Part shown: positions 2,350-62,444 of the stretch, piece by piece
How positions within the stretch are numbered: the first letter of the stretch is position 1
Layout: every line of letters starts with the position of its first letter
From: Escherichia phage EcS1
Sequence record: NC_055721.1
Strand: one strand, 5' to 3'
Length of the DNA: 64,000 nt
The notes under the pieces: model-generated
What the model saw: the letters and a program-made list of their open reading frames with translations, nothing else
Told to the model about the DNA's origin: nothing
Database searches by the model: none
Made by a program: the position numbers and the translations under genes

Positions 2350-3687
2350 ATGGCTATTCCTTCAGTAACGATTACCCCAGTTAATGCCTCACCACAACTT
2401 GGTCAGACATTAACTATCAATTCAGTAGTTGAATTCGACCCAACAGATGTTTATACATCGTATAAATGGGAACTTTCTGGCGCAGATACAGGCGTTACTA
2501 CTGCAACATACACTAAAGCCAATATCACAAGTGCTGATGCTGGTTCTTACGTATTAAAAGTTATGCATGGTGTTGATGCAGGTTCTGCAACTGAAACCGC
2601 TTCAAGTCCTGCCGTTATTACTACTTTACCGGCAACAACTGTTTCTATTGTTTCAACCACTACTGACATTTATGTCGGTGATACATTAACTATTACTGCT
2701 ACCCCAACTGGTGTTCCTTCTGGCGCAACAGTAGGCGCATATGAATGGTCTAAAGGTGGTACTGTAGTTTCGGGCCAAACTACTTCTACATTGACTAAAA
2801 CAGTTGCGGCTGGCGATGCCGGTTCTTATACTGCTAAAGTATCTTATACTGTAACAGGCCAAGCACCAATTAAAACTGCTGCATCTAATGCTATCTCTGT
2901 TACTGTTGGACCTGCATTAGCATTTGCTACTAACCTTAATGCAACAGCTTCTGTATCAACAGGCCAAGCTCTTACCCTAACTGTAGCAGCATCCGGTGGT
3001 AAATCTCCATATACATATCAATGGAAGAAAGGAAGTGCTAACATAGGAACTAATTTAAATACATTTATAGTTCCTTCTGCGGATTCAACAACTGCAGGAA
3101 CTTATACTGTTGAAGTGACAGATGCTGCAAGTCATAAAATCACATCAGCTTCTTGTGTTGTTACAGTGGTGCCTGCTTTATCTTTGAGCACCGATTTGTC
3201 TGCGACTAAATCAGTTGTTTCAGGTAAAACTCTTACTCTAACTATTGTTGCAGCTAATGGCAAAACGCCTTATACATATCAATGGAAAAGAGCTGGCGTT
3301 GAAATCCCAAGTGAAACAGCTGCTACATTTACTAAATCTGCGTCACCAGCGGACGCAGGTACGTATACATGTGAAGTGACAGATGATAATAACGATAAAA
3401 TCACATCTAATACATGTGTTGTAACTGTTAGTTTATTGCCTGATTTAGAAGTTCTTTGGACTGTACATCCTATCCCATGGCGAGATACAAGTTTCACTCC
3501 GTTAGGTTATTGGGTATTAGATGAAATCTTACTTCAAAAAGCTGATGGCAAAGACTGGAAAACTGATTACGCTACTTATCATTACACAGAAGAAGTTCAA
3601 ACTATTTTAGAAGCATTTAATGCTATGGGTGAAGTTGAAATTCAAGACTCGCGTAATGGGTATATCCACAAAATGAGTTTAATTTAA
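2350..3687 (+). CDS. hoc: Hoc-like outer capsid decoration protein: four Ig-like repeats plus C-terminal capsid-binding domain
   Basis: Four ~90-aa repeats, the last two ending in AGTYTVEVTD / AGTYTCEVTD with internal YTYQWK (Ig-like signature); C-terminal ~80 aa (HPIPWRDTSF...) non-Ig domain; T4 hoc position. Confidence 0.7.
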   Translation: MAIPSVTITPVNASPQLGQTLTINSVVEFDPTDVYTSYKWELSGADTGVTTATYTKANITSADAGSYVLKVMHGVDAGSATETASSPAVITTLPATTVSIVSTTTDIYVGDTLTITATPTGVPSGATVGAYEWSKGGTVVSGQTTSTLTKTVAAGDAGSYTAKVSYTVTGQAPIKTAASNAISVTVGPALAFATNLNATASVSTGQALTLTVAASGGKSPYTYQWKKGSANIGTNLNTFIVPSADSTTAGTYTVEVTDAASHKITSASCVVTVVPALSLSTDLSATKSVVSGKTLTLTIVAANGKTPYTYQWKRAGVEIPSETAATFTKSASPADAGTYTCEVTDDNNDKITSNTCVVTVSLLPDLEVLWTVHPIPWRDTSFTPLGYWVLDEILLQKADGKDWKTDYATYHYTEEVQTILEAFNAMGEVEIQDSRNGYIHKMSLI

Positions 3688-15320: not shown

Positions 15321-15349
15321 ATAGTACCACATCCTTGTGGTGTTGTAAA
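15321..15349 (-). promoter_or_regulatory. Early sigma70-type promoter (-35 TTTACA, 17 bp, -10 TACTAT)
   Basis: Read on minus strand; matches T4 early promoter pattern; immediately upstream of 14981-15292 gene. Confidence 0.5.
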
Positions 15350-17413
15350 CTACCCTTGAATAAAACGTTCTGGGATTTCTTGGATGTCTATTAAAGAAGC
15401 TAAAAGAGCTAGTCCTTCTTTGTTAGGATTAGGCTTTGAAGCCTTCACAAATGAGGTAAAGTTCAATGGTTCAGAAGTGTCCATAGCAACAAGTTCACCA
15501 TTCTCAAACAATGCATCACCATCATACACTATAGTAGATTCTTCAATTTGTTCTGAAGTCATGATTTCAGCTTGAATGAACTTTTGGTTACTATATTGAA
15601 TACCGTCATTATAAGAAGCATCAGTTATAGAATTAATGGATACCATTGTTCCACGAGGTAAAATGATTTCCATTTCAGAAGGCATATTACTCAAATCACC
15701 AGGGAAGATGACGTTAATTTTATGACCACCATCAATAGCCCAACCAACTGTAACTCTGATATCATTTTCAAATTGGCCTGGCATATCTTTTGCTTCTTCG
15801 GAACCTGCATCAATGTTAAGTTCACTACGAACTTCTTCAGGAGCTAAACCAATAGCCGAATTTCCTTTCCAACCACCAAAGATGATAGGAGCTAATGAAG
15901 TAGAAACATAATTACGGAAATAGAATACACGGTTTTTAATCAATGATTCCCAAATAGGCTTACGTATAGTTTGAGAACGCCATAACGTAATATTTTCTGG
16001 GATGCGGTCACCACGTTCAAAAGCAGCATCAATTCCATCAATAGCTTCTAAGACTTCATAGCGATTCATTATATTGCTACTTTGCTCAGACCAACGGCCA
16101 AGCAAATAATCATTAATATCATGATAACCAGAACCAACATATTCTCTGATACCACGTTGCTCTTTTACTGGATATTGTAAAGGAGTACGAGAGCCAGCTA
16201 TACCATTAATATTATCTGATACGTTTTTGGCATAGTTTTGAAGTGATTCTTTGATGAACTTAGTTCTTAACATAGTCCATTCAGCTTGAGCACGTTCTTT
16301 TGACATGCCATAATTATCATCCAATTGTTTATCTATAAAATCTTCTTTAAAATCTTCAGTCATATCCATGCATAATTTAGCATATTCTTGCATACTTTTA
16401 ACAGAAGTTAAAGGAGCTTGACCTATATTTTTAATTAAAACTTCAGTCATTCGATCTGACATTCTAGCAATAGTATCTTCATCAATAAATCTTAAATTTT
16501 TTAATCTATAACCAATACCGTTGACGGCTCTTTCTGCTGATCTTGTTCTAGCAGCCTTAGAAGTTAGCACCAATTCTAATTCGCGTGCTTCTGGGACTAA
16601 ATTAGCAGTTGCCGGCTTATTAAACTTAGAAGCTCTGGCTTCAATTTCATCCCATTTAGGGTCACTAAATGAATCCGTAGCCATTGATTGGGATGCAGCT
16701 ACTTGTCGGCGCGAAACCTTAGTACGATTAATTACTGAACGATCTGAACGATCTTTTTCAATTTCAGCAATAGAACCAGCAAAAGCTTCATCTTTAGTTA
16801 CATTTTCGCCTGTTTTCTTAGAAACATACACATCGCCGACCTTAGATTCAACCTTAGTGTATAGCTCAGAATTGATTTCAGGGATGCCAGAGATATCCTC
16901 TAGACCACGAGACTTACGATAGATAAGAATATATGCGTGCTTTGAAGTAAATGTATAGAGCGCATCCAGGACTTTAAATTGACCACCTGTACGAGCCATT
17001 ACCAGACGTTGCATGATGCGTTGAACAGTTCGTTCTTGGCCTTTCATTTTCTTGGCCGGGAAACGGAACATCACAGCATCCATACGGTTCTTTTTAACTA
17101 CTGAATACACAGTGTCGAAGATAGTATTCAATGCACCTACAGGATCGGAACCTAATCCACCTTTAAGTTCAGCAGGTGTTCCTTTATCACTTAGTGACAT
17201 CAGAATAACGTGTGCGTATTTGTCGCCTTGTTTAATCTGTTTAGTCGCATCACCTTGAGACAAATATGAAACCATACGAGCAACTAGCTTATCATTACCT
17301 GGAACTTTAATAGACCAGAGTTGTGGAACTTTTGCTTTTGGGTTCAAATCAATGACTGGATATCCATTTTCGGATTCGCTGTCAAAAACTTCAACCAATA
17401 AATTATCAGTCAT
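15350..17413 (-). CDS. alt: Alt ADP-ribosyltransferase (packaged, modifies host RNA polymerase)
   Basis: 687 aa (T4 Alt 682); position between 54 and 30; ART-like STS (YVSTSL) and ExE (SEMEI) motifs. Confidence 0.75.
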   Translation of the reverse strand: MTDNLLVEVFDSESENGYPVIDLNPKAKVPQLWSIKVPGNDKLVARMVSYLSQGDATKQIKQGDKYAHVILMSLSDKGTPAELKGGLGSDPVGALNTIFDTVYSVVKKNRMDAVMFRFPAKKMKGQERTVQRIMQRLVMARTGGQFKVLDALYTFTSKHAYILIYRKSRGLEDISGIPEINSELYTKVESKVGDVYVSKKTGENVTKDEAFAGSIAEIEKDRSDRSVINRTKVSRRQVAASQSMATDSFSDPKWDEIEARASKFNKPATANLVPEARELELVLTSKAARTRSAERAVNGIGYRLKNLRFIDEDTIARMSDRMTEVLIKNIGQAPLTSVKSMQEYAKLCMDMTEDFKEDFIDKQLDDNYGMSKERAQAEWTMLRTKFIKESLQNYAKNVSDNINGIAGSRTPLQYPVKEQRGIREYVGSGYHDINDYLLGRWSEQSSNIMNRYEVLEAIDGIDAAFERGDRIPENITLWRSQTIRKPIWESLIKNRVFYFRNYVSTSLAPIIFGGWKGNSAIGLAPEEVRSELNIDAGSEEAKDMPGQFENDIRVTVGWAIDGGHKINVIFPGDLSNMPSEMEIILPRGTMVSINSITDASYNDGIQYSNQKFIQAEIMTSEQIEESTIVYDGDALFENGELVAMDTSEPLNFTSFVKASKPNPNKEGLALLASLIDIQEIPERFIQG

Positions 17414-21779: not shown

Positions 21780-21810
21780 TTTGTTATCCAAGTTTGCTGA
21801 TTGAGTGTAC

Positions 21811-21839
21811 ATAATACCACACTCAATCAGCGTTGTAAA
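21811..21839 (-). promoter_or_regulatory. Early promoter (-35 TTTACA, 17 bp, -10 TATTAT) embedded in 13-bp inverted repeat
   Basis: Arms GCTGATTGAGTGT (21796-21808) and ACACTCAATCAGC (21819-21831) flank the -10. Confidence 0.5.
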
Positions 21840-21842
21840 CAC

Positions 21843-22990: not shown

Positions 22991-23015
22991 ATTCACCTCA
23001 TACAGATACAAAAAT

Positions 23016-23033
23016 GGGAGACCGAAGTCTCCC
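23016..23033 (-). terminator. UUCG-tetraloop terminator (GGGAGAC-UUCG-GUCUCCC then AUUUUUGU)
   Basis: Plus GGGAGACCGAAGTCTCCC; member of a dispersed repeat family. Confidence 0.7.
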
Positions 23034-23038
23034 ATAAC

Positions 23039-30904: not shown

Positions 30905-30933
30905 TTTAATATCCTCATTTTGTTGGTAGGAGA

Positions 30934-30962
30934 ATCTTATCACAACAAAATGAGGATGTAAA
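30934..30962 (-). promoter_or_regulatory. Early promoter (-35 TTTACA, 17 bp, -10 TAAGAT) inside 13-bp inverted repeat
   Basis: Arms CCTCATTTTGTTG (30913-30925) and CAACAAAATGAGG (30943-30955); the downstream arm contains the alc SD (GAGG). Confidence 0.55.
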
Positions 30963-32135
30963 CTACTCTTGTTCGATTACAATTTCTTTCTTATATTCGT
31001 CTGGAACGAAGAACTTGTGATTCTTGTTAAAAGCTTCGTTAAGCTGTGGAATTAACTTATCTAGGTCTAAACCACCTGTGAACGCTTTCATCAGAATTGG
31101 GAACAGATAAGAACGGTCTGCATCTTTAAAGATTGTTTGAGCAGAGATAGCGAAGTCTTTACGGTCACGACCAGCTAGTTGCTTATAAGTTGTTTGAACT
31201 AAGTCTAATGCATGACGCAAGAACTCTAAATGAATAGTTTCAAACTTATCAATCTTAGTGATAGCCCATTCATCGCCTGCGAACATAGAACGAAGGTCAT
31301 CAGAACCACCAGACACGACAGATTCGAAGAGAGCTTCGTTTTTAGTGATGGAATCTTTAGTACGATGCAAAGCAACATACCAATCAGTTTTGAGCTTAAA
31401 GTTCAAACCGTTTTCCATTACAAAAACATAACCTTCTACACCTTCTTTGGCGCGAATGCCAGGCACAAATCGTTCATCGGCAGGAACATTAAATGCTTCT
31501 ACCAAATGAGGACGAAGCATTGCATCTTTAAACAATTCTTCATATGGAACATATTCACCAGTCTTATTTTCACGAACATTCAGAAGAATCAGGTCACGTT
31601 TACTATAAGCCAGAACGATACGGTTATCTGGTGCAACGTATTCCATGTTACAAGTGAAGCCATCTTTAGTAAGTTGAGTCACACGTTTCAAGAATTTTTC
31701 ATAACGTGGACCATTGATAACTTGTAGTGCTGCATAAGCTTGTTCAGAAGAAATAGAAGCCTTAGACTTCAAGAACAGTTGGTCGTTATCTACAAAGCTA
31801 GAGATTAGAGAACCATCAGCCTTATCCATCATCAATTTGATTTTAGTAAGGTCCAAGTTCATGGTAAATGGAGTTTCATCTAAGTTAAAGAATTTTTCCA
31901 TCGGACGAGCTGCAATACGAGTAGGCTTACCATCGACCATTTCAAACATAATGCCGCGGCACTCTAGAGCGTCAGGCAGAAGCCAATCAGAGTAAGATGC
32001 ATAGTTATAACTGAAGATACGATACTCACCACCAAACGGCGTCTGGTAGTCACGGAAATAGAATTTAGACTGGTCTTTTGGGTCAGTCAATTTCATCAGG
32101 TTTTTGTACAAATCATGTTCTTGTTTAGTAATCAT
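30963..32135 (-). CDS. rnlA: RNA ligase 1 (tRNA repair)
   Basis: Matches T4 gp63 as recalled: YRIFSYNYASYSDWLLPDALECRGIMFEM, RPMEKFFNL, adenylation motif KADGSL. Confidence 0.9.
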   Translation of the reverse strand: MITKQEHDLYKNLMKLTDPKDQSKFYFRDYQTPFGGEYRIFSYNYASYSDWLLPDALECRGIMFEMVDGKPTRIAARPMEKFFNLDETPFTMNLDLTKIKLMMDKADGSLISSFVDNDQLFLKSKASISSEQAYAALQVINGPRYEKFLKRVTQLTKDGFTCNMEYVAPDNRIVLAYSKRDLILLNVRENKTGEYVPYEELFKDAMLRPHLVEAFNVPADERFVPGIRAKEGVEGYVFVMENGLNFKLKTDWYVALHRTKDSITKNEALFESVVSGGSDDLRSMFAGDEWAITKIDKFETIHLEFLRHALDLVQTTYKQLAGRDRKDFAISAQTIFKDADRSYLFPILMKAFTGGLDLDKLIPQLNEAFNKNHKFFVPDEYKKEIVIEQE

Positions 32136-39774: not shown

Positions 39775-39868
39775 AGCCTTGCCTCATTCCACATTGAATA
39801 CACTTGCCACCAGCGAACATAAGTCCACACCCACAATACTTACATTCCCAATCAGTCAGAATTCTCAT
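39764..39868 (-). CDS. Candidate zinc-ribbon mini-protein (34 aa; CxxC-x10-CxxC), not in ORF track
   Basis: Manually translated MRILTDWECKYCGCGLMFAGGKCIQCGMRQGYGN; ATGA overlap with upstream stop and 11-nt overlap with downstream start. Confidence 0.3.
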   Translation of the reverse strand: MRILTDWECKYCGCGLMFAGGKCIQCGMRQGYGN

Positions 39869-40143
39869 TTTGTTTTCTTAGCAATTTTCCAGGCAGCTTT
39901 GAAAGCTTCGACTTCTTCAATTTCAATCCAAAAACCAGAACCAAAGCCATCGTCATAACAAGGACAGCCGTCGCAATAGTCTTCCCAAGTAAGATCACGA
40001 CCGCCAAGAGAAGAACCAGTTTCCATTGCACGCAGACGAATTTCAGCAGCTTCAATAGCTTCAGGGTCGTTACCTTCAATAGTGAAGTACCATTTTCCAC
40101 GATATTCATTACCTAAGTTGATTGAGTTACGTTTAAGTTTCAT
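39865..40143 (-). CDS. Hypothetical small protein
   Basis: Start at ATG 40143 with GGAG RBS downstream of promoter 40170-40198. Confidence 0.4.
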   Translation of the reverse strand: MKLKRNSINLGNEYRGKWYFTIEGNDPEAIEAAEIRLRAMETGSSLGGRDLTWEDYCDGCPCYDDGFGSGFWIEIEEVEAFKAAWKIAKKTK

Positions 40144-40169
40144 TTTATTCTCCTTGTTGGTGTAGAAGC

Positions 40170-40198
40170 ATAATACCATACCTCTACACCGTTGTACA
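40170..40198 (-). promoter_or_regulatory. Early-type promoter (-10 TATTAT, -35-like TGTACA) flanked by inverted repeat GGTGTAG/CTACACC
   Basis: Cassette nearly identical over ~45 bp to the one at 58003-58042. Confidence 0.45.
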
Positions 40199-40537
40199 CT
40201 ACTTATTGAAAGTCTTTTTGATCAATGCAATCATTTCTTCTGCATTGCCTTCGTAGACAGTCAAAGTTATCGACTCATCTTTTATTTTTTCAAAGTATTT
40301 GAATTCACCTTGTGCTAGTTCAAAGTAAGGGACAAAACCACCTGAACCTGCAACTTGCCCATTGGCAAACTCGATTTCATCTACATAAAGGTCATAATCA
40401 CATTTACTAACATTTCGAACAGTGAACCAACCACCATTCTTATCGATCAAACGAACCATTTCATTGTTACAATGAGCATTTTCCATGAAAGCTGAGGTGC
40501 ACTCTTCTTTCAAGCGATATTTTTTATCAACTTGCAT
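40199..40537 (-). CDS. Hypothetical protein
   Basis: 112-aa ORF. Confidence 0.4.
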   Translation of the reverse strand: MQVDKKYRLKEECTSAFMENAHCNNEMVRLIDKNGGWFTVRNVSKCDYDLYVDEIEFANGQVAGSGGFVPYFELAQGEFKYFEKIKDESITLTVYEGNAEEMIALIKKTFNK

Positions 40538-40800: not shown

Positions 40801-40829
40801 ATCTTACCACATCTAAATGAGGTTGTAAA
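40801..40829 (-). promoter_or_regulatory. Early promoter (-35 TTTACA, 17 bp, -10 TAAGAT)
   Basis: Immediately downstream of gene 32 terminator. Confidence 0.5.
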
Positions 40830-40842
40830 CAGATACAAAAAT

Positions 40843-40860
40843 GGGAGACCGAAGTCTCCC
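40843..40860 (-). terminator. UUCG-tetraloop terminator after gene 32 (GGGAGAC-UUCG-GUCUCCC then AUUUUUGU)
   Basis: 34-bp sequence identical to the element at 23002-23035. Confidence 0.7.
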
Positions 40861-40867
40861 ATCATTA

Positions 40868-41773
40868 TTACATACCTGCTAACAGAGCATCTAAGTCGTC
40901 TTCATCAGCACCACTTGGTGTGGTATCACGAGATTGGACATTAGTACGAGCTGTATCAGTAAAGTCTTTCATATCTTGGTCGAAGGCATCAAGTGAATCA
41001 CCGATTGCATCAGCCTGAGCAGAAGCTTTAGCGGCAGCACCACCAAGTGCAGCGATACCAAATACTTGTTCAAATTTCTTCTGGTTTACATCCAGAGTTT
41101 TGAACTTATCTTTAGAAGTCAGTTCGCTCAAATCAGACATATTGTCATTGAGGAATGTCTGGAACGTTTCGTCGTTGATATTAGGGATTTCAGATTGACC
41201 TAAGAATTTAGAGTCATCATAGTTCTTGAAATCACCGACTTTCTTAGTTTTCAGTACGAAGTTCGCACCATCGAAAGGACATGTCACATCGACTGGAGTT
41301 TCACCGATAGAGGTATCAACTTCAACCATTGCTGTGATTTTGTCGTATACTTTCTGACCAAAACGGAACTTGAATACTTTACCTTCTGTTTCTGGGTTAG
41401 CTTTATCTTGAACAACCAAGATGTTAGCCCAGTATGAAGTCTTACGCTTCAGGAGTTGGTATTCAGGCTTATTCGTATTGTACGAATCATTTTTAGACAG
41501 ATATTGGCAAACTGGACAGTTATCAAAGTCACCATGAGTAGAAGTACAGTTTTCGATGTACCATTTACCATTTTTCTTGAAACCGTGATTCACCAGCTTA
41601 GCAAACGGAAGACCTTCATCACCTTTACCTGGAAGGAAACGAATAACAGCCATGCCATTACCGTTGTCGTCTTTCAATTTCCATTCATTCTTATCGTCAG
41701 AAGAGAAACCTTGACCACCTTTCAGAGAAGCCAGTTGTGCTTGAAGAGCTGCAGGATCTTTACGCTTGAACAT
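40868..41773 (-). CDS. 32: Single-stranded DNA-binding protein gp32
   Basis: 301 aa as T4 gp32; near-colinear ([45 protein letters not shown]). Confidence 0.9.
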
Positions 41774-44132: not shown

Positions 44133-47100
44133 ATGGCCGATATTTTAAAACCTGCTTTCCGTGCCACATCCGGCCTTGATGCAGGTGGCGATAAAGTTAT
44201 CAACGTTGCGAAAGCTGATTTCGACGTTTTAAGTGATGGTGTTAACGTTGATTTCTTCATTGAAGAAAACACCATCCAAGAATATATTGAAACACGTGCA
44301 TACCGTCAAAACTTTGCTGTTATGTTTGATGGACGTATCTGGACTGCTAAAGCTGATATTGCTTCACCTTCAGGGCCATTCCAAGAAGCACGTTGGACTG
44401 CATTACGTACTGACCCAAAATGGAAATATGTTACTTCAGGGGCGAACAATGCTCTTAATTCAGGCGATACCATTTCTGTTACTACTGAATTAGGCGATGT
44501 TGGATTCATTTTACCAAATGATCCACAAGATGGCGACACCATTGTAATTAAAGATGTCGGTGCGAAGGTTGGTTACAATTCACTTAAAGTAAAAGTATCA
44601 AACCAACAGATCGTTAATTTAGGTAACAAAGTAAATGAACTTCTGATTACCAAACCACGTTCAGAAAACGTGTTTATTTTTAGTAATCGTTTATGGTATT
44701 TTTATGCTGCTGAAGAAAGTATTCATGCAACTCAAATCACTGTAGCAAATAACGAATATCGTGCATCGGCTAGTGAACGTATCTTCCGTACTCACTCAGC
44801 GCCAGGTGCAATCATTGTTGTTCTGCCTAAATACGCAAACAATGGTGATATCATTTATTTCACTGACCTTGATGGGTTAGCTCCGTTACAACATTTAATT
44901 GTTAAGACATTTGATAACACTTCAAGTATTGGTAAAGCTGGACAATATCAGATTGAATCACGTACTTCGGCCGATGGCTTAGTTATCTACGATGCATCTA
45001 CTAAAGTATGGAAGATTTGGGACGGCGATATCAGACAACGTCTTCGTATTATTCGTGATGACGTAAATCTGTTAGCCAATGAAAGTGTCATGGTTTTTGG
45101 TGTTAATAACTCAGTTCAAAAAACAATTAACATTAAATTACCTGCTGGCGTTGCGATCGGTGATAAAGAACGTATCGCAATGAACTATATGCGTAAAGGT
45201 CAGAAAGTAATTATTACCGCTGCAACTGGCGATAAAATTGCTACTTCTAAAACTTTGCTTCAGTTCCCTAAACGTTCTCAGTATCCACCTGATGTTGAAT
45301 GGGTTAAAGTCGATTCATTAGAATTTGATGGTACCATTGATTATGTTCCTATTATGGAATTATCTTATGTGGAAGATGGTGCTGAAAAGTATTGGGTTGT
45401 TTCTACTAATGATCCGACAGTAGAACGTGTTGATGCAACTAGTGATGCTAATAGACAACGTTTAGGTGTTATTGCTCTGGCAAGCCAGGCGCAAGCTAAT
45501 GCGAACCATGAACAGACTCCTGAAAAAGAATTAGCTATTACTCCAGAGACTTTAGCTAACAGAACAGCTACTGAAACTCGTCGTGGTATAGCACGTGTAG
45601 CAACAACAGCTGAAGTTAATAAATTAACGACTGACACTTATGCTGATGATACTATTATTACACCTAGAAAGTTAAATGAACGTTCAGCTACTGAAACTCG
45701 TCGTGGACTTGCTGAAATTGCAACTCAGCCTGAAACTAATGCCGGAACAGATGATACAGTCATTATAACGCCGAAAAAACTAGAAGCACGTCGTGCAACT
45801 GAAACTATGGCTGGTATTGCGCCTTTAGTTGTTTCAGGTGGTATTCCAGGTATTGACCGTGATACTGTAGGAACTGGCATTTACGAACGTACTGAACATA
45901 CTCGTCAAGTAACGCCTAAGACCTTGTTTGAAAATAAGGCTACTCAGACGGCGCAAGGTGGTGTTTGGATGGCAACTGGCAATGAAACTATTGCTGGGGT
46001 AGTTGATACTCCTGCGATGCCTCTAGCTGTGTCTCCTGAACAACTACATAAAAAGACTGCTACTGAAACTCGTATTGGTTTTACCGAAATTGCTACACAA
46101 CCGGAAACTGATGCTGGGACTGATGACTTCAGATTCATTACGCCTAAGAAATTAAATAACCGTAATGCTACCGAAACTTTGACAGGTATATCGCGTGTCG
46201 CGACACAAGTGGAATTTGATGCTGGTACTTTAGATAATGTTATTTCAACTCCGTTGAAAATTAAAACTAGATTTAATGATACCGCTCGTACTTCTGTTAT
46301 CCCAGCCAGTGGTTTAACTGAATCAGGAACTCTCTGGAACCATTATACACTGGATATTCGAGAAGCATCTGAAACACAACGTGGTACAGCTCGTTTAGCG
46401 ACTCAACTTGAAGTAAATACTGGTACAGATGATAAAACAATTGTTACTCCTTTAAAACTTCATAGCAAAAAAGCTACTGAATCTTCTGAAGGTATTATCC
46501 AAGTAGCAACTCAGGCTGAAACAGTTACAGGCACATCTCCAACTAAAGCAATATCGCCTAAGAACTTCAAATATGTTGTTCAACAAGAAACGACTTGGGA
46601 AGCAAGTCCAACCACTCGTGGTTTTGTTAAGATTTCTGAAAATGCTATTACTTGGGTAGGTAATAATACAGCTGGGTCTACTAAACCATTAGACCAATAT
46701 GTGAAATCTGGGTATGCTATTTCTCCATATGAGTTGAATAAAACTCTGGCTAATTATTTGCCATTAATGGCTCAAGCTGAAGATTCACGTAATTTAGATG
46801 GACTTGATTCACTTCAATTCATCCGTCGTGATATCGACCAAACTGTGAATGGCAAATTAACTCTGACCAAAGAGTTAGTGACTTCTGCTGCTATTACTTC
46901 AACTGCCGCTGCAACATTTGATTCAGTATTAAGTATCAAAACAGTGACAATTGGTAATAATACAGGTAATGCTATTTTCAATATGGCTGGGACCACGAAC
47001 CCATGGGCTATTTCTGCATTATCATCTAAAGATACTATTGAATTCAAGTCTGGTACTTCAGCTAATGCTTTAGTATTGAATAAGAATGGTGATACAACAA

Positions 47101-47917: not shown

Positions 47918-49066
47918 ATGTCTAATATTATGGCTGGTTTCGGTAATGGATTTGTCGAAACCCAAATCATATCAGAAAATAATGCTGTAAGATATAAACT
48001 GTCAATAGCGGCCGGACTTAAAAAGTCCGTGCCTGCTATAGGTTATGTTTTATTGCAAGATAAACCGTTAGGCCCGCAAGAGAGTCCTCCTGGATTAACC
48101 GTTAGAGAATTTAATGTTGCAACAAATACAATTGCATCATCTAAATTATTTGAATTTAAAAATGGTGAAGCAGGCGGAGCTTCTCAAGCATTTGTGGATT
48201 ATATTACGGCCTTATCTTCTAAACCTAATGTAATTGTTATTCTTACATCAGGTGATAGATTATATTCTAATGCGGCAATTGATACATGGTTTTTAAATGC
48301 ATCAGCAACAAGTTGGCCAGGCACATGGAGGTGTTCTAAATTCCCATGCTCTTACGTTGCTTTTTATTCTCCACTTTATAAAAAGATAGTTCAAGAACAT
48401 GCTACTTATAGCGATGATATTTTAAGACAGGAAGATGTCAGAGCTCAATTAGAAATTGTTTATGATAAGTTCAATGATATAGGCGCTACTGGATTTTCTA
48501 AACGTTCTATAGAAGACCCTACTGAATATTCAAGTAGCACTGAGTTTGACTTTGTACGATATCCTATCGGTGCGCCTATTATCGCACCAATGGCTGACTA
48601 TTCATTGAGAGCTGGTTCAAAGGTAAAGGTATCGTTTGAATTATATGCTTCAGCCGATTTATTAGCTACAGGTCAAACAGTCCGTATTAGTTTTCGTTGG
48701 TTTAAAGATACCGCTATTCTTACGTCTCAGACGAATGAGGTGGCACTCGGACAAGCCGATAGATGGATAAAGTACGAACGGGTTCTAGATGTCCCTGCCA
48801 CCGCTGACGGCTTCACAATCATTGTTTCTAGATATCCTCGACAACCTGAACCTGGGCTTGGAGCTATCAAGAATTTAATTATGACAGAAGTCTCAAGACA
48901 AGATGAAGCATTAACTCGTCCTGCTGAATTTGGTGTCAATGGTATAAGAATGAACAAAGCTATAGATGGAACTGTGTCTGAATTGTTGATTCTTGCTGAT
49001 ACTAGCGATGATCCGTCAGGACAAGTTGAATCAGTTGAGTTCAGAGAACTTAAGAAAGATGTATAA
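47918..49066 (+). CDS. 35: Long tail fibre hinge protein gp35
   Basis: 382 aa; synteny 34-35-36-37. Confidence 0.7.
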   Translation: MSNIMAGFGNGFVETQIISENNAVRYKLSIAAGLKKSVPAIGYVLLQDKPLGPQESPPGLTVREFNVATNTIASSKLFEFKNGEAGGASQAFVDYITALSSKPNVIVILTSGDRLYSNAAIDTWFLNASATSWPGTWRCSKFPCSYVAFYSPLYKKIVQEHATYSDDILRQEDVRAQLEIVYDKFNDIGATGFSKRSIEDPTEYSSSTEFDFVRYPIGAPIIAPMADYSLRAGSKVKVSFELYASADLLATGQTVRISFRWFKDTAILTSQTNEVALGQADRWIKYERVLDVPATADGFTIIVSRYPRQPEPGLGAIKNLIMTEVSRQDEALTRPAEFGVNGIRMNKAIDGTVSELLILADTSDDPSGQVESVEFRELKKDV

Positions 49067-49070
49067 TATT

Positions 49071-49088
49071 GGGAGACTTCGGTCTCCC
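49071..49088 (+). terminator. UUCG-tetraloop hairpin (GGGAGAC-UUCG-GUCUCCC then AUUUUAG) after gene 35
   Basis: Same repeat family as 54632; directly followed by late promoter box. Confidence 0.6.
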
Positions 49089-49095
49089 ATTTTAG

Positions 49096-49103
49096 TATAA
49101 ATA
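49096..49103 (+). promoter_or_regulatory. Late promoter box TATAAATA for gene 36
   Basis: Exact box ~25 nt upstream of ATG 49128. Confidence 0.55.
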
Positions 49104-56959: not shown

Positions 56960-57595
56960 TTAAGCCAGAACTTTAAGCATAGTTTGAACTTCAACCAATG
57001 AAGCAGTAGAAGTTGTGTCGATGTAAACGTTTTTGCCACCAATTTTAGTTGCAAAACCTGCATCAGAGAAAGCTTTAACCAGAGCTTCATCCATATTGTA
57101 ACCAAAGATACGAACCTTACCATCACGACGAACTTCGATCTGACGAATACCTTTAGTACGTTTGACCAAGCGAACTTCTAAGTTACTACGGTTTTCAGCG
57201 ATTTCTTTAACTTCAAATTCAGCGGCTTCCATTGCAACTTTAACTTCATCAGCCATTTTAGTCATTTCTGAAGTCACACCACGAGCACTACGTGTTTTAC
57301 GTACTTTAGTTAACTCAGGTTTTTCTTCGGCTGCATAGATGTCAGCAGCTTTGTTGATGATATCCATACCATCTTCAGTTACCATCAAACCATCAGCCGA
57401 TTTTTCGATGAAACCTTTTTTAATCAGAACACCAATGTTAGAGTTCACTGAAGAAGCATTAATTGTTTCAGCCAGGTTTTCACGGATTTCAGCTGAAGTG
57501 ATGAAGTTCTGCTTAACAACTTGAGTCAAGATTGCAGCAGTTTTTTCGTTCAGAGAATCTTCGGAAGCTTTGATGATATAAGTAATTTTAGACAT
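56960..57595 (-). CDS. motA: Middle-transcription activator MotA
   Basis: Start MSKITYIIKAS (T4 MSKVTYIIKAS); conserved NSNIGVLIKKG and C-terminal IFGY.M region. Confidence 0.9.
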   Translation of the reverse strand: MSKITYIIKASEDSLNEKTAAILTQVVKQNFITSAEIRENLAETINASSVNSNIGVLIKKGFIEKSADGLMVTEDGMDIINKAADIYAAEEKPELTKVRKTRSARGVTSEMTKMADEVKVAMEAAEFEVKEIAENRSNLEVRLVKRTKGIRQIEVRRDGKVRIFGYNMDEALVKAFSDAGFATKIGGKNVYIDTTSTASLVEVQTMLKVLA

Positions 57596-57638
57596 TTGAA
57601 ACTCCATTATGTTTTAATCAATTTGTTGGTGTAGGAGT

Positions 57639-57667
57639 ACTATACCATGTTTTGATGCTGTTGTAAA
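57639..57667 (-). promoter_or_regulatory. Early promoter for motA (-35 TTTACA, 17 bp, -10 TATAGT)
   Basis: Minus-strand reading; preceded by GAGCTCTT/AAGAGCTC hairpin at 57679-57698. Confidence 0.55.
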
Positions 57668-57709
57668 CACTTTATTTTGAGCTCTTTTTCAAGAGCTCTG
57701 GTAAAATGC

Positions 57710-57973
57710 TTATGCGTTATACTGTTTTGTTACTTCGTTTTGAATCGCTTTATGGTTTACTCTGAATTGTTCAGCTGTATTAACTGCAAAACCTGCAAGT
57801 GATGAAATGTTAGAACGAAGACCGGTTACTTCAAGAGAAATCATATCTTTTGAAACTGATTTGCTTTCACCAAATGTAAGTGTGAAGTTTTCAGCAGTGT
57901 CTGAATTAATTTTTTTGCAAAGAACCAGTAAAGTAACAGTGATTTCGTTTACGTTATCGTTAAAAGTATTCAT
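57710..57973 (-). CDS. Hypothetical small protein
   Basis: Start at internal ATG with GGAG RBS downstream of promoter. Confidence 0.35.
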   Translation of the reverse strand: MNTFNDNVNEITVTLLVLCKKINSDTAENFTLTFGESKSVSKDMISLEVTGLRSNISSLAGFAVNTAEQFRVNHKAIQNEVTKQYNA

Positions 57974-58013
57974 TTTGTATCTCCAGTTTGTTTCATTTTG
58001 TTGGTGTAGAAGC

Positions 58014-58042
58014 ATAATACCATGTTCCTACACCGTTGTACA
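58014..58042 (-). promoter_or_regulatory. Early-type promoter cassette (duplicate of 40170-40198) with GGTGTAG/CTACACC inverted repeat
   Basis: ~45 bp near-identical to 40151-40198. Confidence 0.45.
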
Positions 58043-58044
58043 TA

Positions 58045-58698
58045 CTAAAGTGAAAAAGATTTGCAAAGTTTCCACTGAATTTCTGCATAAGCATATTTGT
58101 AGCCTAAATCCATCATTTCACTGATGAAGTAAGACTTGTTATCACGATTCAATGTATAAAGTCCTACAGCCAATTTAGTAGGCTTAGCAACACGTTTCAC
58201 TTCACCGCCAAAGTTAGGTGAAGAAGGCTTTTGAGAACGTGGTAGTTCTTGGTTAGTGAAAGCAGCTACATCGAATTCTGATTCTTGACGAGTATGGCCA
58301 GCATTAATCATCCAAGATTCATTGAACCCAAAACGACCTTTTATTGGCAGTTTAGCACGAGCATGTTTGTCACCAAGCTCAAGAGCTTTAGCACGCCATA
58401 CTTTATCGTGTCCATGACCTTCAGTTAATGCATGAGCTAGTTCATGAAGAATAATTTCTTCAACACATTCAGCTGGGATAGCAAAGAACCAATGCGCTTG
58501 AAAAGCAATTAGCTTTTTGCGATAGCTGCAATGAGCAATTTCATGTTTACGAGTAGAAGAAACTATTTTGAAGTCCCATCCATCTAAACCGTGTTGCTTA
58601 CACTTGGCTTCAAAGAAACCTTTAGCTGAATCCACTGAGTGGAATAAAACTCCATTGTGATAAAAAGCTTTGGAAGCGATACGTTCGATAAGATTCAT
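58045..58698 (-). CDS. Putative zinc metallopeptidase-like protein (HExxH motif; SprT/Wss1-like)
   Basis: ILHELAHALTEGHGHD contains HExxH plus downstream His; family assignment tentative. Confidence 0.4.
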   Translation of the reverse strand: MNLIERIASKAFYHNGVLFHSVDSAKGFFEAKCKQHGLDGWDFKIVSSTRKHEIAHCSYRKKLIAFQAHWFFAIPAECVEEIILHELAHALTEGHGHDKVWRAKALELGDKHARAKLPIKGRFGFNESWMINAGHTRQESEFDVAAFTNQELPRSQKPSSPNFGGEVKRVAKPTKLAVGLYTLNRDNKSYFISEMMDLGYKYAYAEIQWKLCKSFSL

Positions 58699-58726
58699 TT
58701 TGTTTCTCCATGTTGGTAGGATTGCT

Positions 58727-61641: not shown

Positions 61642-61791
61642 ATTTTCCTCAGAAATAGTAATTAAAAGTTATCCAGAATAAATCCCAACACAACACTGTA
61701 ACAGCAGTTAAAGATAGTGCTAAGCAAACTAAGATGTTTCGAAGCCAAATCTTTAAAGTTTTCATAAGTACTCCCATGTTTGTGTAGGAGT

Positions 61792-61820
61792 ACTATACCA
61801 TGTTAATCAGACGTTGTAAA
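61792..61820 (-). promoter_or_regulatory. Early promoter (-35 TTTACA, 17 bp, -10 TATAGT) overlapping 3' end of denB-like gene
   Basis: Cassette similar to motA promoter; drives tiny TM ORF at ~61649-61765. Confidence 0.45.
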
Positions 61821-62444
61821 CACCTTACATGCACATGAGTCTTCCCAGCCCCAATCAACACGTCCTGAGATATACCAACCAGTGAAATTACTCTTTGCAA
61901 CTAATCCGGCTTCCTTTTTGAATGCCATCTTGTCTGCAAGTACGTAAGGGATAAGCCTGTACGCGCCAGGACCCATCTTCTCAACACGGAATATAATTAT
62001 AACGTCTGATACAGAGAATTCAATGAACGGCCCCAGGTTAATCCCATAACCACCTGGATATCGTCCGAACTGACCAGTTGTACATCCTACCCACTGTTTC
62101 TGACCTATACGTTCAGGGTTCAACATACTTGTCTTAACTTCAACTCGCAATCCAGAATACTTAGGATGAGCCAGCACATCGTATGCATACGTGTAAGGGT
62201 CTTTGAGATTTTCGCCACCATGATTAATGTAGCCATCAAGATGGTCAGCTACATAACGTTCGGCAATGATAGCTGGGATACAACGATCAGTAACTTCTTC
62301 GAGGTCTTGTTCAGGGTCTTGAGACATCGAATAACGAACAGTGTCTTTAATCTTTACTTTATCTTCAGGACTCAAATCCTTGACCGTGAAAGTCTGTGTC
62401 TTCAATTCGCTCAATCGGACCCAGCCCGGATTCGTCAGTTCCAT
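61803..62444 (-). CDS. Hypothetical protein, possibly endonuclease IV (DenB) by synteny; start uncertain
   Basis: Position between ndd and rIIB as T4 denB; N-terminal 80 nt overlap with upstream ORF. Confidence 0.35.
   Translation of the reverse strand: MELTNPGWVRLSELKTQTFTVKDLSPEDKVKIKDTVRYSMSQDPEQDLEEVTDRCIPAIIAERYVADHLDGYINHGGENLKDPYTYAYDVLAHPKYSGLRVEVKTSMLNPERIGQKQWVGCTTGQFGRYPGGYGINLGPFIEFSVSDVIIIFRVEKMGPGAYRLIPYVLADKMAFKKEAGLVAKSNFTGWYISGRVDWGWEDSCACKVFTTSD

Follow-up and report, generated by a model that had tools for sequence, protein, structure and literature searches.

The final part of the genome of Escherichia phage EcS1 (Tevenvirinae, Kagamiyamavirus; record NC_055721.1, 175,437 bp), a stretch of 64,000 nucleotides that we call the window, holds two nearly identical intergenic segments on its minus strand. 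The one that we term copy 1 stands between a gene of the FRD2 family and a small gene of the DUF5417 family, near gene 32, and copy 2 stands between a SprT-like gene and a small open reading frame (ORF) next to motA. Both resemble early promoters of the T4 type that are joined to the leader of the gene that follows, and both carry an inverted repeat around the -10 box, which is the main subject of this analysis. The nearest annotated relatives of EcS1 in the phage collection belong to Winklervirus (about 83-87% DNA identity) and include the Serratia phages X20, CHI14 and LC53 and the Erwinia phages Vettismorki and Virsaitis27. The genes at the two loci, followed by the parts of copy 1 and of copy 2 (with SD for Shine-Dalgarno sequence), are:

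40868-41773, minus strand: gene 32.
40199-40537, minus strand: gene of the FRD2 family (Pfam), upstream of copy 1.
39865-40143, minus strand: gene of the DUF5417 family (Pfam, E 5.8e-48), 92 aa, served by copy 1; orthologues exist.
58045-58701, minus strand: SprT-like gene, upstream of copy 2.
57710-57973, minus strand: 87-aa ORFan unique to EcS1 (gp162), served by copy 2.
56960-57595, minus strand: motA (Pfam MotA_activ and MotCF).
40154-40198, minus strand: copy 1, block of identity with copy 2, TGTACAACGGTGTAGAGGTATGGTATTATGCTTCTACACCAACAA.
40193-40199, minus strand: copy 1, -35 GTGTACA (family consensus GTTTACA).
40170-40178, minus strand: copy 1, extended -10 TGGTATTAT, with the hexamer at 40175-40170.
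40177-40190, minus strand: copy 1, hairpin 5' arm GGTGTAGAGGTATG, within the spacer of the promoter, on the upstream side of the predicted start; its perfect Watson-Crick part is GGTGTAGA (40190-40183).
40159-40172, minus strand: copy 1, hairpin 3' arm TATGCTTCTACACC, containing the predicted start A 40163; its perfect part is TCTACACC (40166-40159).
40141-40163, minus strand: copy 1, leader ACACCAACAAGGAGAATAAAATG, with the SD GGAG at 40153-40150 and the ATG at 40143-40141.
57998-58042, minus strand: copy 2, block of identity with copy 1, TGTACAACGGTGTAGGAACATGGTATTATGCTTCTACACCAACAA.
58037-58043, minus strand: copy 2, -35 ATGTACA.
58014-58022, minus strand: copy 2, extended -10 TGGTATTAT.
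58028-58034, minus strand: copy 2, hairpin 5' arm GGTGTAG, in the spacer.
58003-58009, minus strand: copy 2, hairpin 3' arm CTACACC, with the predicted start A 58007.
57981-58050, minus strand: copy 2, predicted read-through fold, in which an outer helix encloses the inner hairpin.

Read along the minus strand, copy 1 is GTGTACA-AC-GGTGTAGA-GGTA-TGGTATTAT-GCT-TCTACACC-AACAAGGAGAATAAAATG and copy 2 is ATGTACA-AC-GGTGTAG-GAACA-TGGTATTAT-GCTT-CTACACC-AACAAAATGAAACAAACTGGAGATACAAAATG. Both thus present (G/A)TGTACA, a 17-nt spacer, TGGTATTAT, GCTTCTACACCAACA and then a short leader with GGAG and ATG, and in both the repeats GGTGTAG(A) and (T)CTACACC bracket the -10. The start sites at 40163 and 58007, the A of CT-A-CACC, are placed from the usual 7-nt distance to the -10 and would give A/C-rich leaders of 20 nt in copy 1 and 34 nt in copy 2. 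The two cassettes end in the SD and start codon of the downstream gene, within 23-37 nt of the predicted start; for the promoter family the distance is 20-37 nt. At copy 1 the stop codon of the FRD2 gene abuts the -35, and the entire intergenic space is the cassette.

The initial annotation had described these segments as near-identical cassettes of about 45 bp, some 18 kb apart, each with a minus-strand -10, a -35-like TGTACA and a bracketing 7-bp inverted repeat. All of this holds, the repeat being 8 bp long in copy 1. Aligned at an offset of 17,844 nt, 40154-40198 and 57998-58042 agree at 41 of 45 bases, as an exact 26-mer, 4 mismatches (40180-40183 versus 58024-58027, all transitions) and an exact 15-mer; the pair is real, although the second interval had been placed a few bases off, at 58001-58048. 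A repeat search of the window finds the pair again and places it together with 57624, 61777 and 54951, and the related cassettes with TATAGT that had been noted at motA (-10 at 57644-57639) and at 61797-61792 are likewise present. The word "duplicated", on the other hand, understates the case: EcS1 has at least a third strict copy outside the window, and its relatives have between 3 and 9 places that match the 79-nt cassette.

That these are early promoters is best seen with a pattern specific to T4-type phages. A search for GTTTACA (at most 2 mismatches), N16-18 and TAnnnT, with a bonus for TG, gives 10 matches in the window, all 10 on the minus strand and each just before the start of an ORF, against 1.8 +/- 1.2 in composition-matched random sequence with both strands taken together. 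The complete X20 genome gives 36 matches, 33 of them on the early-gene strand. A promoter-site scan labels both copies sigma-70-like with TG, and a generic sigma-70 scan of two 1.5-kb regions showed no enrichment over shuffles (6 versus 4.7 and 3 versus 4.7); for these promoters only the T4-specific pattern is informative, not the generic scan. The -35 matches GTTTACA at 6 of 7 positions in copy 1 and at 5 of 7 in copy 2, the 17-nt spacing is exact in both, and both have the TGn and TAnnnT of an extended -10 in the form of TGGTATTAT. As for an A-rich UP element around -40 to -52, copy 1 has CAAAAAG upstream. Both copies may depend mainly on the extended -10. As to the -35 itself, GTGTACA is common to copy 1 and its Winklervirus orthologues, GTTTACA being found in the Marfavirus orthologue, and the ATGTACA of copy 2 is two changes away from the GTTTACA of a 96%-identical cassette in Edwardsiella phage PEi26.

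An ungapped alignment of 51 promoter sites from EcS1, X20 and the first 50 kb of T4 has the consensus GTTTACAAC...TGGTATnAT..T.CTACA..AA.AA, and the conserved start region of the cassettes reads CT-A-CACCAACA. In this clade the consensus thus runs through the start site into the leader, so that the cassette is the whole intergenic region.

Each copy has a counterpart of 93-96% identity at its own locus in another genus. Copy 1 occupies the same FRD2/DUF5417 junction in four Winklervirus phages and in CHI14, and its orthologue in the Marfavirus PhiKpNIH-6, GTTTACATCGGTGTAGAGGTATAGTATTATGCTTCTACACCAACAAGGAG, has both 14-nt arms identical to those of EcS1 in a setting where the neighbouring coding DNA is only about 76% identical. 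The copy 2 cassette (79 nt) is 96% identical over 77 nt in PEi26 and 90% identical in Enterobacter phage Entb_45; in both of these Kanagawavirus phages it lies directly 3' of the SprT-like gene. The PhiKpNIH-6 and PEi26 counterparts both carry GTTTACA as the -35. The third strict EcS1 copy, GTTTACAATGGTGTAGGAACGTGGTATTATGCTCCTACACCAACAAGGAG, precedes an ORF starting MLTKIV in IMGVR_UViG_2974737508_000001, an EcS1 contig that also holds both window copies with identical flanks; it appears to be orthologous to position 48527 of X20. The strict subfamily pattern further matches CHI14, PEi20 and uncultured contigs, and X20 has three subfamily copies (6888, 48527 and 149153). Since each is matched almost exactly, at its own locus, by a cassette of another genus, the two copies are better regarded as old than as the product of a recent duplication, and their likeness points to conserved paralogy under purifying selection. 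Taken by itself, the pair consists of ordinary conserved early promoters of a T4-like phage.

Less ordinary is the inverted repeat, which is not private to the two sites. Many other early promoters have such a repeat, with the 5' arm in the spacer just past the -35 and with arms that are unrelated in sequence; the sequence GGTGTAG is common only to the subfamily named after it, the other members having unrelated arms in the same register. Further examples in the window, each followed by the position that serves as its name, are:

21796-21840, minus strand: early promoter (21816) with a 13-bp perfect repeat, GCTGATTGAGTGT/ACACTCAATCAGC, that brackets the -10; predicted -27.4 kcal/mol, z -5.9.
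30911-30963, minus strand: early promoter of the alc orthologue (30939) with a 15-bp perfect repeat, ATCCTCATTTTGTTG/CAACAAAATGAGGAT, whose 3' arm holds the SD; z -4.2.
61767-61821, minus strand: related cassette GTTTACA-N17-TATAGT (61797) with an 8-bp hairpin that covers the SD, pairing AGTACTCC (61794-61787) with GGAGTACT (61774-61767).
40806, minus strand: promoter with a possible pairing between its spacer, CCTCATTT, and the SD region, AAGTGAGG.

The arm pairs in X20 include TTGGTGTAGGAG/CTCCTACACCAA, GGTGAGAGTCT/AGACTCTCACC, TAGGGTCA/TGACCCTA, GAGAGGGCAT/ATGTCCTCTC and ATCCTCATTTG/CAAATGAGGAT, and those in T4 are CTGACAAGACTA/TAGTCTTGTCGG and GGGACC/GGTCCC. Complementarity that is kept across unrelated arms argues for a nucleic-acid structure rather than a site for a sequence-specific protein. 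Two recurrent designs may be recognized by comparison of these sites. In form A the spacer would pair with the SD: 8 of the 51 promoters have CTCC or CCTC within the first 11 bases of the spacer, against a background of 2.1% (p ~1e-5), and in the 7 of these 8 that precede an SD the anti-SD matches the SD type, GGAG or GAGG. In form B, to which both EcS1 copies belong, the spacer would pair with the bases after the -10. When the first base of the -10 hexamer is numbered 0, the paired positions of form B sum to 1, so that its dyad is centred on bases one and two of the -10. In this register 11 of the 51 promoters have 6 or more Watson-Crick pairs in a row, and the other registers, from -4 to +11, have 0 or 1. 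In the unselected alignment 48.7% of the cells are paired, as against 42.4 +/- 1.3 after shuffling (0 of 500 shuffles reach the observed value); sliding the partner by 1-3 columns lowers pairing to 28-37%, and the covariation score is 0.254 versus 0.187 +/- 0.014. An independent collection, 215 promoter-like sites taken from 120 IMG/VR stretches after removal of duplicates, prefers the same register: runs of at least 6 pairs occur at 7 sites in the form B register and at 0-3 sites in the others, apart from one register with 5. New arms are seen here too, such as TTATGGTAGGACT/AGTCCTACCATAA. The repeat is thus recurrent and covarying in EcS1, X20, T4 and uncultured T4-like phages. Its fixed register is accounted for by the extended -10, as AUGGUAUUAU is self-complementary through G.U pairs and the stem between spacer and start region can therefore extend almost to a tetraloop.

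Two observations of a different kind concern the same spacers. A recurrent spacer, CCACAAGGA(T/C)GTGG, forms a small hairpin that ends in the TG of the extended -10; it is seen at 15326 in the window, at 16297, 27188 and 126122 in X20, and at 2434 in T4. The promoter at 21796-21840 and that at X20 134026, which may be the same locus (a putative orthology), have spacers that pair with different parts of the leader: in EcS1 the partner of the 13-bp arm is the start region, and the SD seems weak (TTGGATAAC), and in X20 TTCTCC pairs with the SD GGAGAA.

As sense-strand RNA, copy 1 is predicted to fold at -20.4 kcal/mol (z -3.5) into a stem of 14 bp, three of them G.U pairs, capped by a GUAU loop; for copy 2 the prediction is an interrupted stem of 13 pairs with the outer helix (-19.9 kcal/mol, z -4.0). 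The 70-nt windows around the 51 unselected promoters have a mean z of -1.98, with 45% below -2; random windows on the same strands have a mean of -0.26, with 6% below -2 (Mann-Whitney p 2.7e-6). The FRD2/DUF5417 junction provides an instructive case, since a predicted 12-bp hairpin with the unrelated arms AGGGCTATAG/CTATAGCCCT in a different register (z -4.6 to -5.5) is present at the orthologous site of a second clade, known from IMG/VR contigs of 165-173 kb with 80% protein identity, and the arm variants AGGGTTATGG and AGGGCTATGG within that clade differ solely by changes that give G.U pairs. Likewise, the alc promoters of X20 and EcS1 differ by two changes in the 3' arm, both giving G.U pairs, and, of the four transitions between the two EcS1 copies, three leave the pairing with the unaltered 3' arm in place (A-U to G.U, G.U to A-U, U.G to C-G).

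These features suggest a way in which the hairpin could distinguish two kinds of transcript. The copies would be transcribed from the minus strand by the host sigma-70 RNA polymerase, with the 5' arm of the hairpin in the spacer and the 3' arm over the first transcribed bases. The promoter's own RNA, starting past the 5' arm, would lack that arm and stay open. RNA that reads through from upstream promoters, which in the early and middle gene clusters of T4 is the rule (PMC2988021), would instead form a hairpin of 12-14 bp (about -20 kcal/mol) whose loop contains or adjoins the -10, and the hairpin would thereby mark read-through transcripts for a handling unlike that of promoter-proximal ones. 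At the neighbouring promoters where the SD is paired, the hairpin would block translation directly. Predicted folds are in keeping with this at 40806, where the unpaired probability from SD to AUG is 0.20 in the read-through RNA versus 0.69 in the own transcript, and at 30939, where this accessibility is again lower in the read-through RNA; at 61797 a hairpin over the SD is predicted, but accessibility is the same in both transcripts (0.29 versus 0.33). Copy 2 would be partially closed (0.47 in read-through versus 0.78 in its own transcript), because the predicted outer helix pairs the end of the SprT-like gene (CTTTAGT, 58050-58044; CUUUAGU in the RNA) with ACTGGAG (57987-57981; ACUGGAG), which holds the SD. 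For the two copies themselves our guess is that the hairpin is most likely an intercistronic structure, either a barrier to decay or processing or a damper of ribosome loading 5' of the SD. In the barrier version it would adjoin the A-rich leader and its GGAG, and GGAG within an SD is a known type of RegB target (PMC3014915). Two simpler assignments were set aside. A canonical terminator is ruled out at both copies, as a U-tract follows neither hairpin on either strand, and a single-strand hairpin promoter of the N4 type was dismissed since the -35 and -10 boxes of these cassettes are of the ordinary duplex kind.

We put the probability at roughly 0.6 that both segments are T4-type early promoter-leader cassettes of one subfamily on the minus strand whose -10 hairpin handles read-through RNA. 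The broader proposition, that T4-like early promoters lie systematically inside hairpins with the spacer as an "anti-leader" that pairs with the SD or, in the form B register, with the first transcribed bases, we advance only tentatively and would not bet on. Several points weigh against the reading just given. The copy 1 hairpin occludes neither SD nor AUG (unpaired probability 0.89 in read-through RNA versus 0.78 in its own transcript), and no U-tract follows it. The -35 of both copies departs from the consensus, and copy 2 seems to be without an A-rich upstream element, having the T-rich stretch TCTTTTTCAC in its place. Common descent links many of the hairpin promoters, and the counts therefore lack full independence. 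The case for RNA rather than DNA has thin support. Where a single mismatch inside a fixed-register stem has pairs on either side, it is G.T in 5 distinct stems, A.C in 0 and another combination in 1, a count based on 6 hairpins; a hand tally over all 14 register positions gives roughly equal numbers of G.T and A.C but is uninformative, since the promoter consensus itself dictates several of the A.C positions. Of 18 hairpin promoters, 15 have a sense RNA that is more stable than the antisense, the mean difference being -3.1 kcal/mol, yet a weaker sense bias is also present in non-hairpin promoters (161 versus 84, mean -0.8), and the X20 orthologue of copy 1 is more stable as antisense (-18.3 versus -15.4). 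These comparisons favour sense-strand RNA, and none of them is decisive. Finally, the start sites, the existence of the read-through RNA and the biological effect of the hairpin are all inferred, the evidence consisting of sequence anatomy, family membership, conservation, covariation and predicted folds.

Other explanations of the repeat have to be weighed against the proposed handling of read-through RNA. The initial annotation had offered a co-regulated early regulon with a shared operator, of which the regulon stands, to the extent that these promoters form one sigma-70 early class, and the shared operator does not, as the arms are unrelated in sequence. An operator would imply that a dimeric phage or host protein binds GGTGTAG-N18-CTACACC across the -10 and switches a subset of early promoters; it could even be the factor that shuts early promoters down minutes after infection, by a mechanism that reviews call unknown (PMC2988021, PMC3014915). 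The placement of the repeat astride the -10, where a repressor would be effective, the identity of the arms in three EcS1 copies and in those of other genera, and the fixed position of the dyad axis relative to the -10 in many promoters would all suit such a protein. Against this, the symmetry is kept with unrelated arms, even at the orthologous locus in another clade, so that no single sequence-specific protein could read them all, and the 3' arm of the subfamily is merely the conserved start region of the family. Moreover, the stem substitutions are biased to G.U-compatible changes, which are meaningless for recognition of duplex DNA, the fixed register has a simpler cause in the G.U self-pairing of AUGGUAUUAU, and no candidate protein was identified; we regard an operator as quite unlikely. 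It is more improbable by far that the repeat has no function and that spacer and start region, each with its own consensus, are complementary by accident. Although CTACACCAACA is indeed a family-wide consensus and ACGGTGTAG recurs in the subfamily, complementarity survives the change of both arms to unrelated sequences, is specific to the register and yields fold energies far beyond those of shuffles; covariation already disfavours a functionless repeat.

Two further explanations place the significance of the copies in DNA. As direct repeats with exact blocks of 26 and 15 nt, they might have arisen recently within the genome, by duplication or gene conversion, and matter chiefly as sites of homologous recombination by which the 17.8-kb interval between them is deleted or circularised. 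T4-type recombination can use patches below 50 bp, and mini-circles form between the cassettes known as promoter-early stem-loops (PeSLs; Arbiol et al. 2010, PMC2839356; Comeau et al. 2014, PMC4122927). An unusual -35, TGTACA, and TGGTATTATGC are also common to the two EcS1 copies; by contrast, TGTTACTATAC is found in the orthologue of copy 1 in X20, and GTTTACA in the PEi26 cassette that corresponds to copy 2. However, the counterparts in different genera make both copies old, and gene conversion need not be invoked because TATTATGCTTC is also present in the PhiKpNIH-6 orthologue of copy 1. Nor is a viable phage to be expected from the 40.2-58.0 kb deletion proposed in the initial annotation: the interval holds gene 32, 59, 33, dsbA, rnh, genes 34-38, the holin gene, asiA and motA, several of them essential (32, 59, 33, 34-38, asiA and motA), and the block is intact and syntenic in X20, Vettismorki, Virsaitis27 and LC53, the 4 of 4 relatives examined. 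We consider a recent duplication very unlikely. The palindrome could also act as DNA, an extruded hairpin or cruciform exposing the -10 and speeding its opening, or serving as a structure-specific recombination site, as Arbiol et al. speculated for PeSL stem-loops as recombination targets (PMC2839356). Its dyad centre falls on the first two bases of the -10, where promoter melting begins, and some promoters have perfect arms of 11-15 bp. As DNA, however, both copies have only 7-8 perfect pairs and loops of 16-18 nt, and hairpins of that size extrude poorly on cruciform energetics. Their stems are long only if G.U pairs are allowed, and the bias of G.T over A.C together with the wobble-only variants would favour sense-strand RNA. 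An action in DNA thus seems unlikely, though a little less so than an operator.

The window has some further features. A terminator with a UUCG tetraloop, GGGAGAC-UUCG-GUCUCCC followed by a U-run, occurs three times, at 23002-23035 and 40829-40862 on the minus strand and at 49057-49090 on the plus strand. The two minus-strand terminators are an exact 34-nt repeat, one of them directly 3' of gene 32, and the plus-strand one follows the gp35 gene and precedes TATAAATA, a sequence like that of a late promoter, near 49096. The gene for the proximal tail fibre (gp34 orthologue) has six diverged 68-nt units at 45567-46540 on the plus strand, spaced by 108-306 nt, and a 445-aa ORF at 2350-3687 contains 261-nt tandem repeats (2960-3428, plus strand) that are possibly repeats of Ig-like domains. 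An Rfam scan of the entire window at gathering thresholds found no family.

The surroundings of copy 2 bear on the exchange of small ORFs between T4-like phages. The relevant features here, with another of similar layout near gene 32, are:

57639-57698, minus strand: downstream boundary of the ORFan module, a hairpin GAGCTCTTGAAAAAGAGCTC (57698-57679) and then the motA early promoter.
57639-57668, minus strand: motA early promoter, GTTTACA (57668-57662) and TGGTATAGT (57647-57639).
40801-40863, minus strand: UUCG terminator of gene 32 followed directly by an early promoter, a classic PeSL layout.

In four Winklervirus phages the slot from the SprT-like gene to motA holds a single promoter and no ORF. 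The EcS1 slot has the cassette, the 87-aa ORFan, a GAGCTC hairpin, a second promoter and motA, and in PEi26 and Entb_45 unrelated ORFs of 58 aa and 51 aa, respectively, are enclosed by the same two boundaries, nearly unchanged in sequence. The EcS1 ORFan belongs to no Pfam or PHROG family and has no tblastn match in phage genomes; its sole match in the protein database is EcS1 gp162 itself, at 100%, so the donor of this cargo ORF is not traceable. Replacement of ORFs between relatives is seen at copy 2 and not at copy 1, the neighbours of which are conserved. This fits the view that conserved cassettes may act as homology patches for modular ORF exchange, with local support at copy 2, and the slot between the SprT-like gene and motA would be a concrete example of an ORFan swapped between conserved cassettes. 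Inside the motA promoter there is also a plus-strand terminator-like hairpin, TGGTGTAG-GAGTA-CTATACCA followed by TGTTTTG (57627-57647), a match that is within chance expectation; its single mismatch is a G.T on the antisense strand, unlike most other cases.

PeSLs are the closest described relatives of these cassettes in composition. They too are a conserved composite of early promoter, stem-loop, SD and start codon, the EcS1 copies fit their promoter consensus in PST/T4 (TTTACW-N17-TAYWAT), and the copy 2 module of cassette, ORFan, hairpin and next promoter behaves as the PeSL model predicts. The difference lies in the stem-loop, which in PeSLs is just upstream of the promoter and acts as a terminator, whereas in both EcS1 copies it encloses the -10, has no U-tract and has its 5' arm inside the spacer. 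The two copies fall outside the PeSL definition because their stem-loop overlaps the promoter instead of preceding it. Classic PeSL layouts are found nearby, at 40863-40801 (the gene 32 UUCG terminator and promoter) and at 57698-57639 (hairpin and motA promoter), and the PeSL concept would thus be refined in that stem-loop and promoter can be superimposed when intergenic space runs out. The notion that a promoter carries either a separate upstream stem-loop or an overlapping one was not upheld: none of the 8 strongest separate upstream hairpins is at a fixed-register hairpin promoter, but the mean energies of upstream hairpins barely differ (-4.3 versus -5.4 kcal/mol) and exclusivity was estimated not to be significant.

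With the early promoters of T4 the copies share the GTTTAC-like -35, the 17-nt spacing, the TG-extended -10 and the position before ORFs on the early strand, as well as the presence of many copies per genome and a consensus that reaches past the core hexamers. The published T4 consensus has GTTTAC at -36 to -31, TGn and the -10 (PMC2988021, PMC1524935), that is, GTTTAC ... TGnTATAAT, a sigma-70 promoter with "UP/-35/TGn/-10" (Wilkens and Ruger, reviewed in PMC2988021). The copies differ in their imperfect -35 (GTGTACA and ATGTACA), and in the clade of EcS1, Winklervirus, Kanagawavirus and Marfavirus the conservation of start and leader (CTACACCAACA) is much stronger than in the promoter matches of the first 50 kb of T4. 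This cassette consensus allows early transcription units to be predicted in a poorly annotated clade. The accessible part of the published description of T4 early promoters contains no hairpin spanning the -10, and we found no dyad symmetry or hairpin at T4 early promoters in the literature, although older T4 work may already describe it. With that caution, a hairpin that encloses the -10, in two forms and a fixed register, is apparently an undescribed variant of PeSLs or of internal-promoter hairpins.

The latter are known from the T4 genes e, soc, 49 and I-TevI, where the ribosome site is hidden by a hairpin whose 5' strand contains a late promoter (PMC3014915). Both designs follow one logic, in that upstream-initiated RNA folds and promoter-proximal RNA does not, and the 5' arms of the EcS1 copies (40190-40177 and 58034-58028) similarly lie upstream of the predicted starts. 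The neighbouring promoters 30939, 40806 and 61797 pair the spacer with the SD as the T4 hairpins do, whereas at both copies the 3' arm is the start region and not the SD or AUG; the parallel therefore appears close for form A and not for the two copies. A second difference is that the T4 promoters concerned are late promoters (TATAAATA), which keep late genes silent early in infection. The EcS1 promoters are of the early type, and the polarity in time would thus be the reverse. Were early promoters systematically built in this way, there would be two kinds of mRNA per gene, one open, from its own immediate-early promoter, and one folded, from read-through, and expression would depend on the short period that ends with the shut-off of early promoters, a simple means of limiting small early genes to the first minutes of infection. 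Such a design might also join in early-promoter shut-off or in the RegB- or RNase E-dependent decay of early mRNA. More generally, if the hairpin does separate the two transcripts, a mechanism thus far associated with a few late genes of T4 would extend to the immediate-early class.

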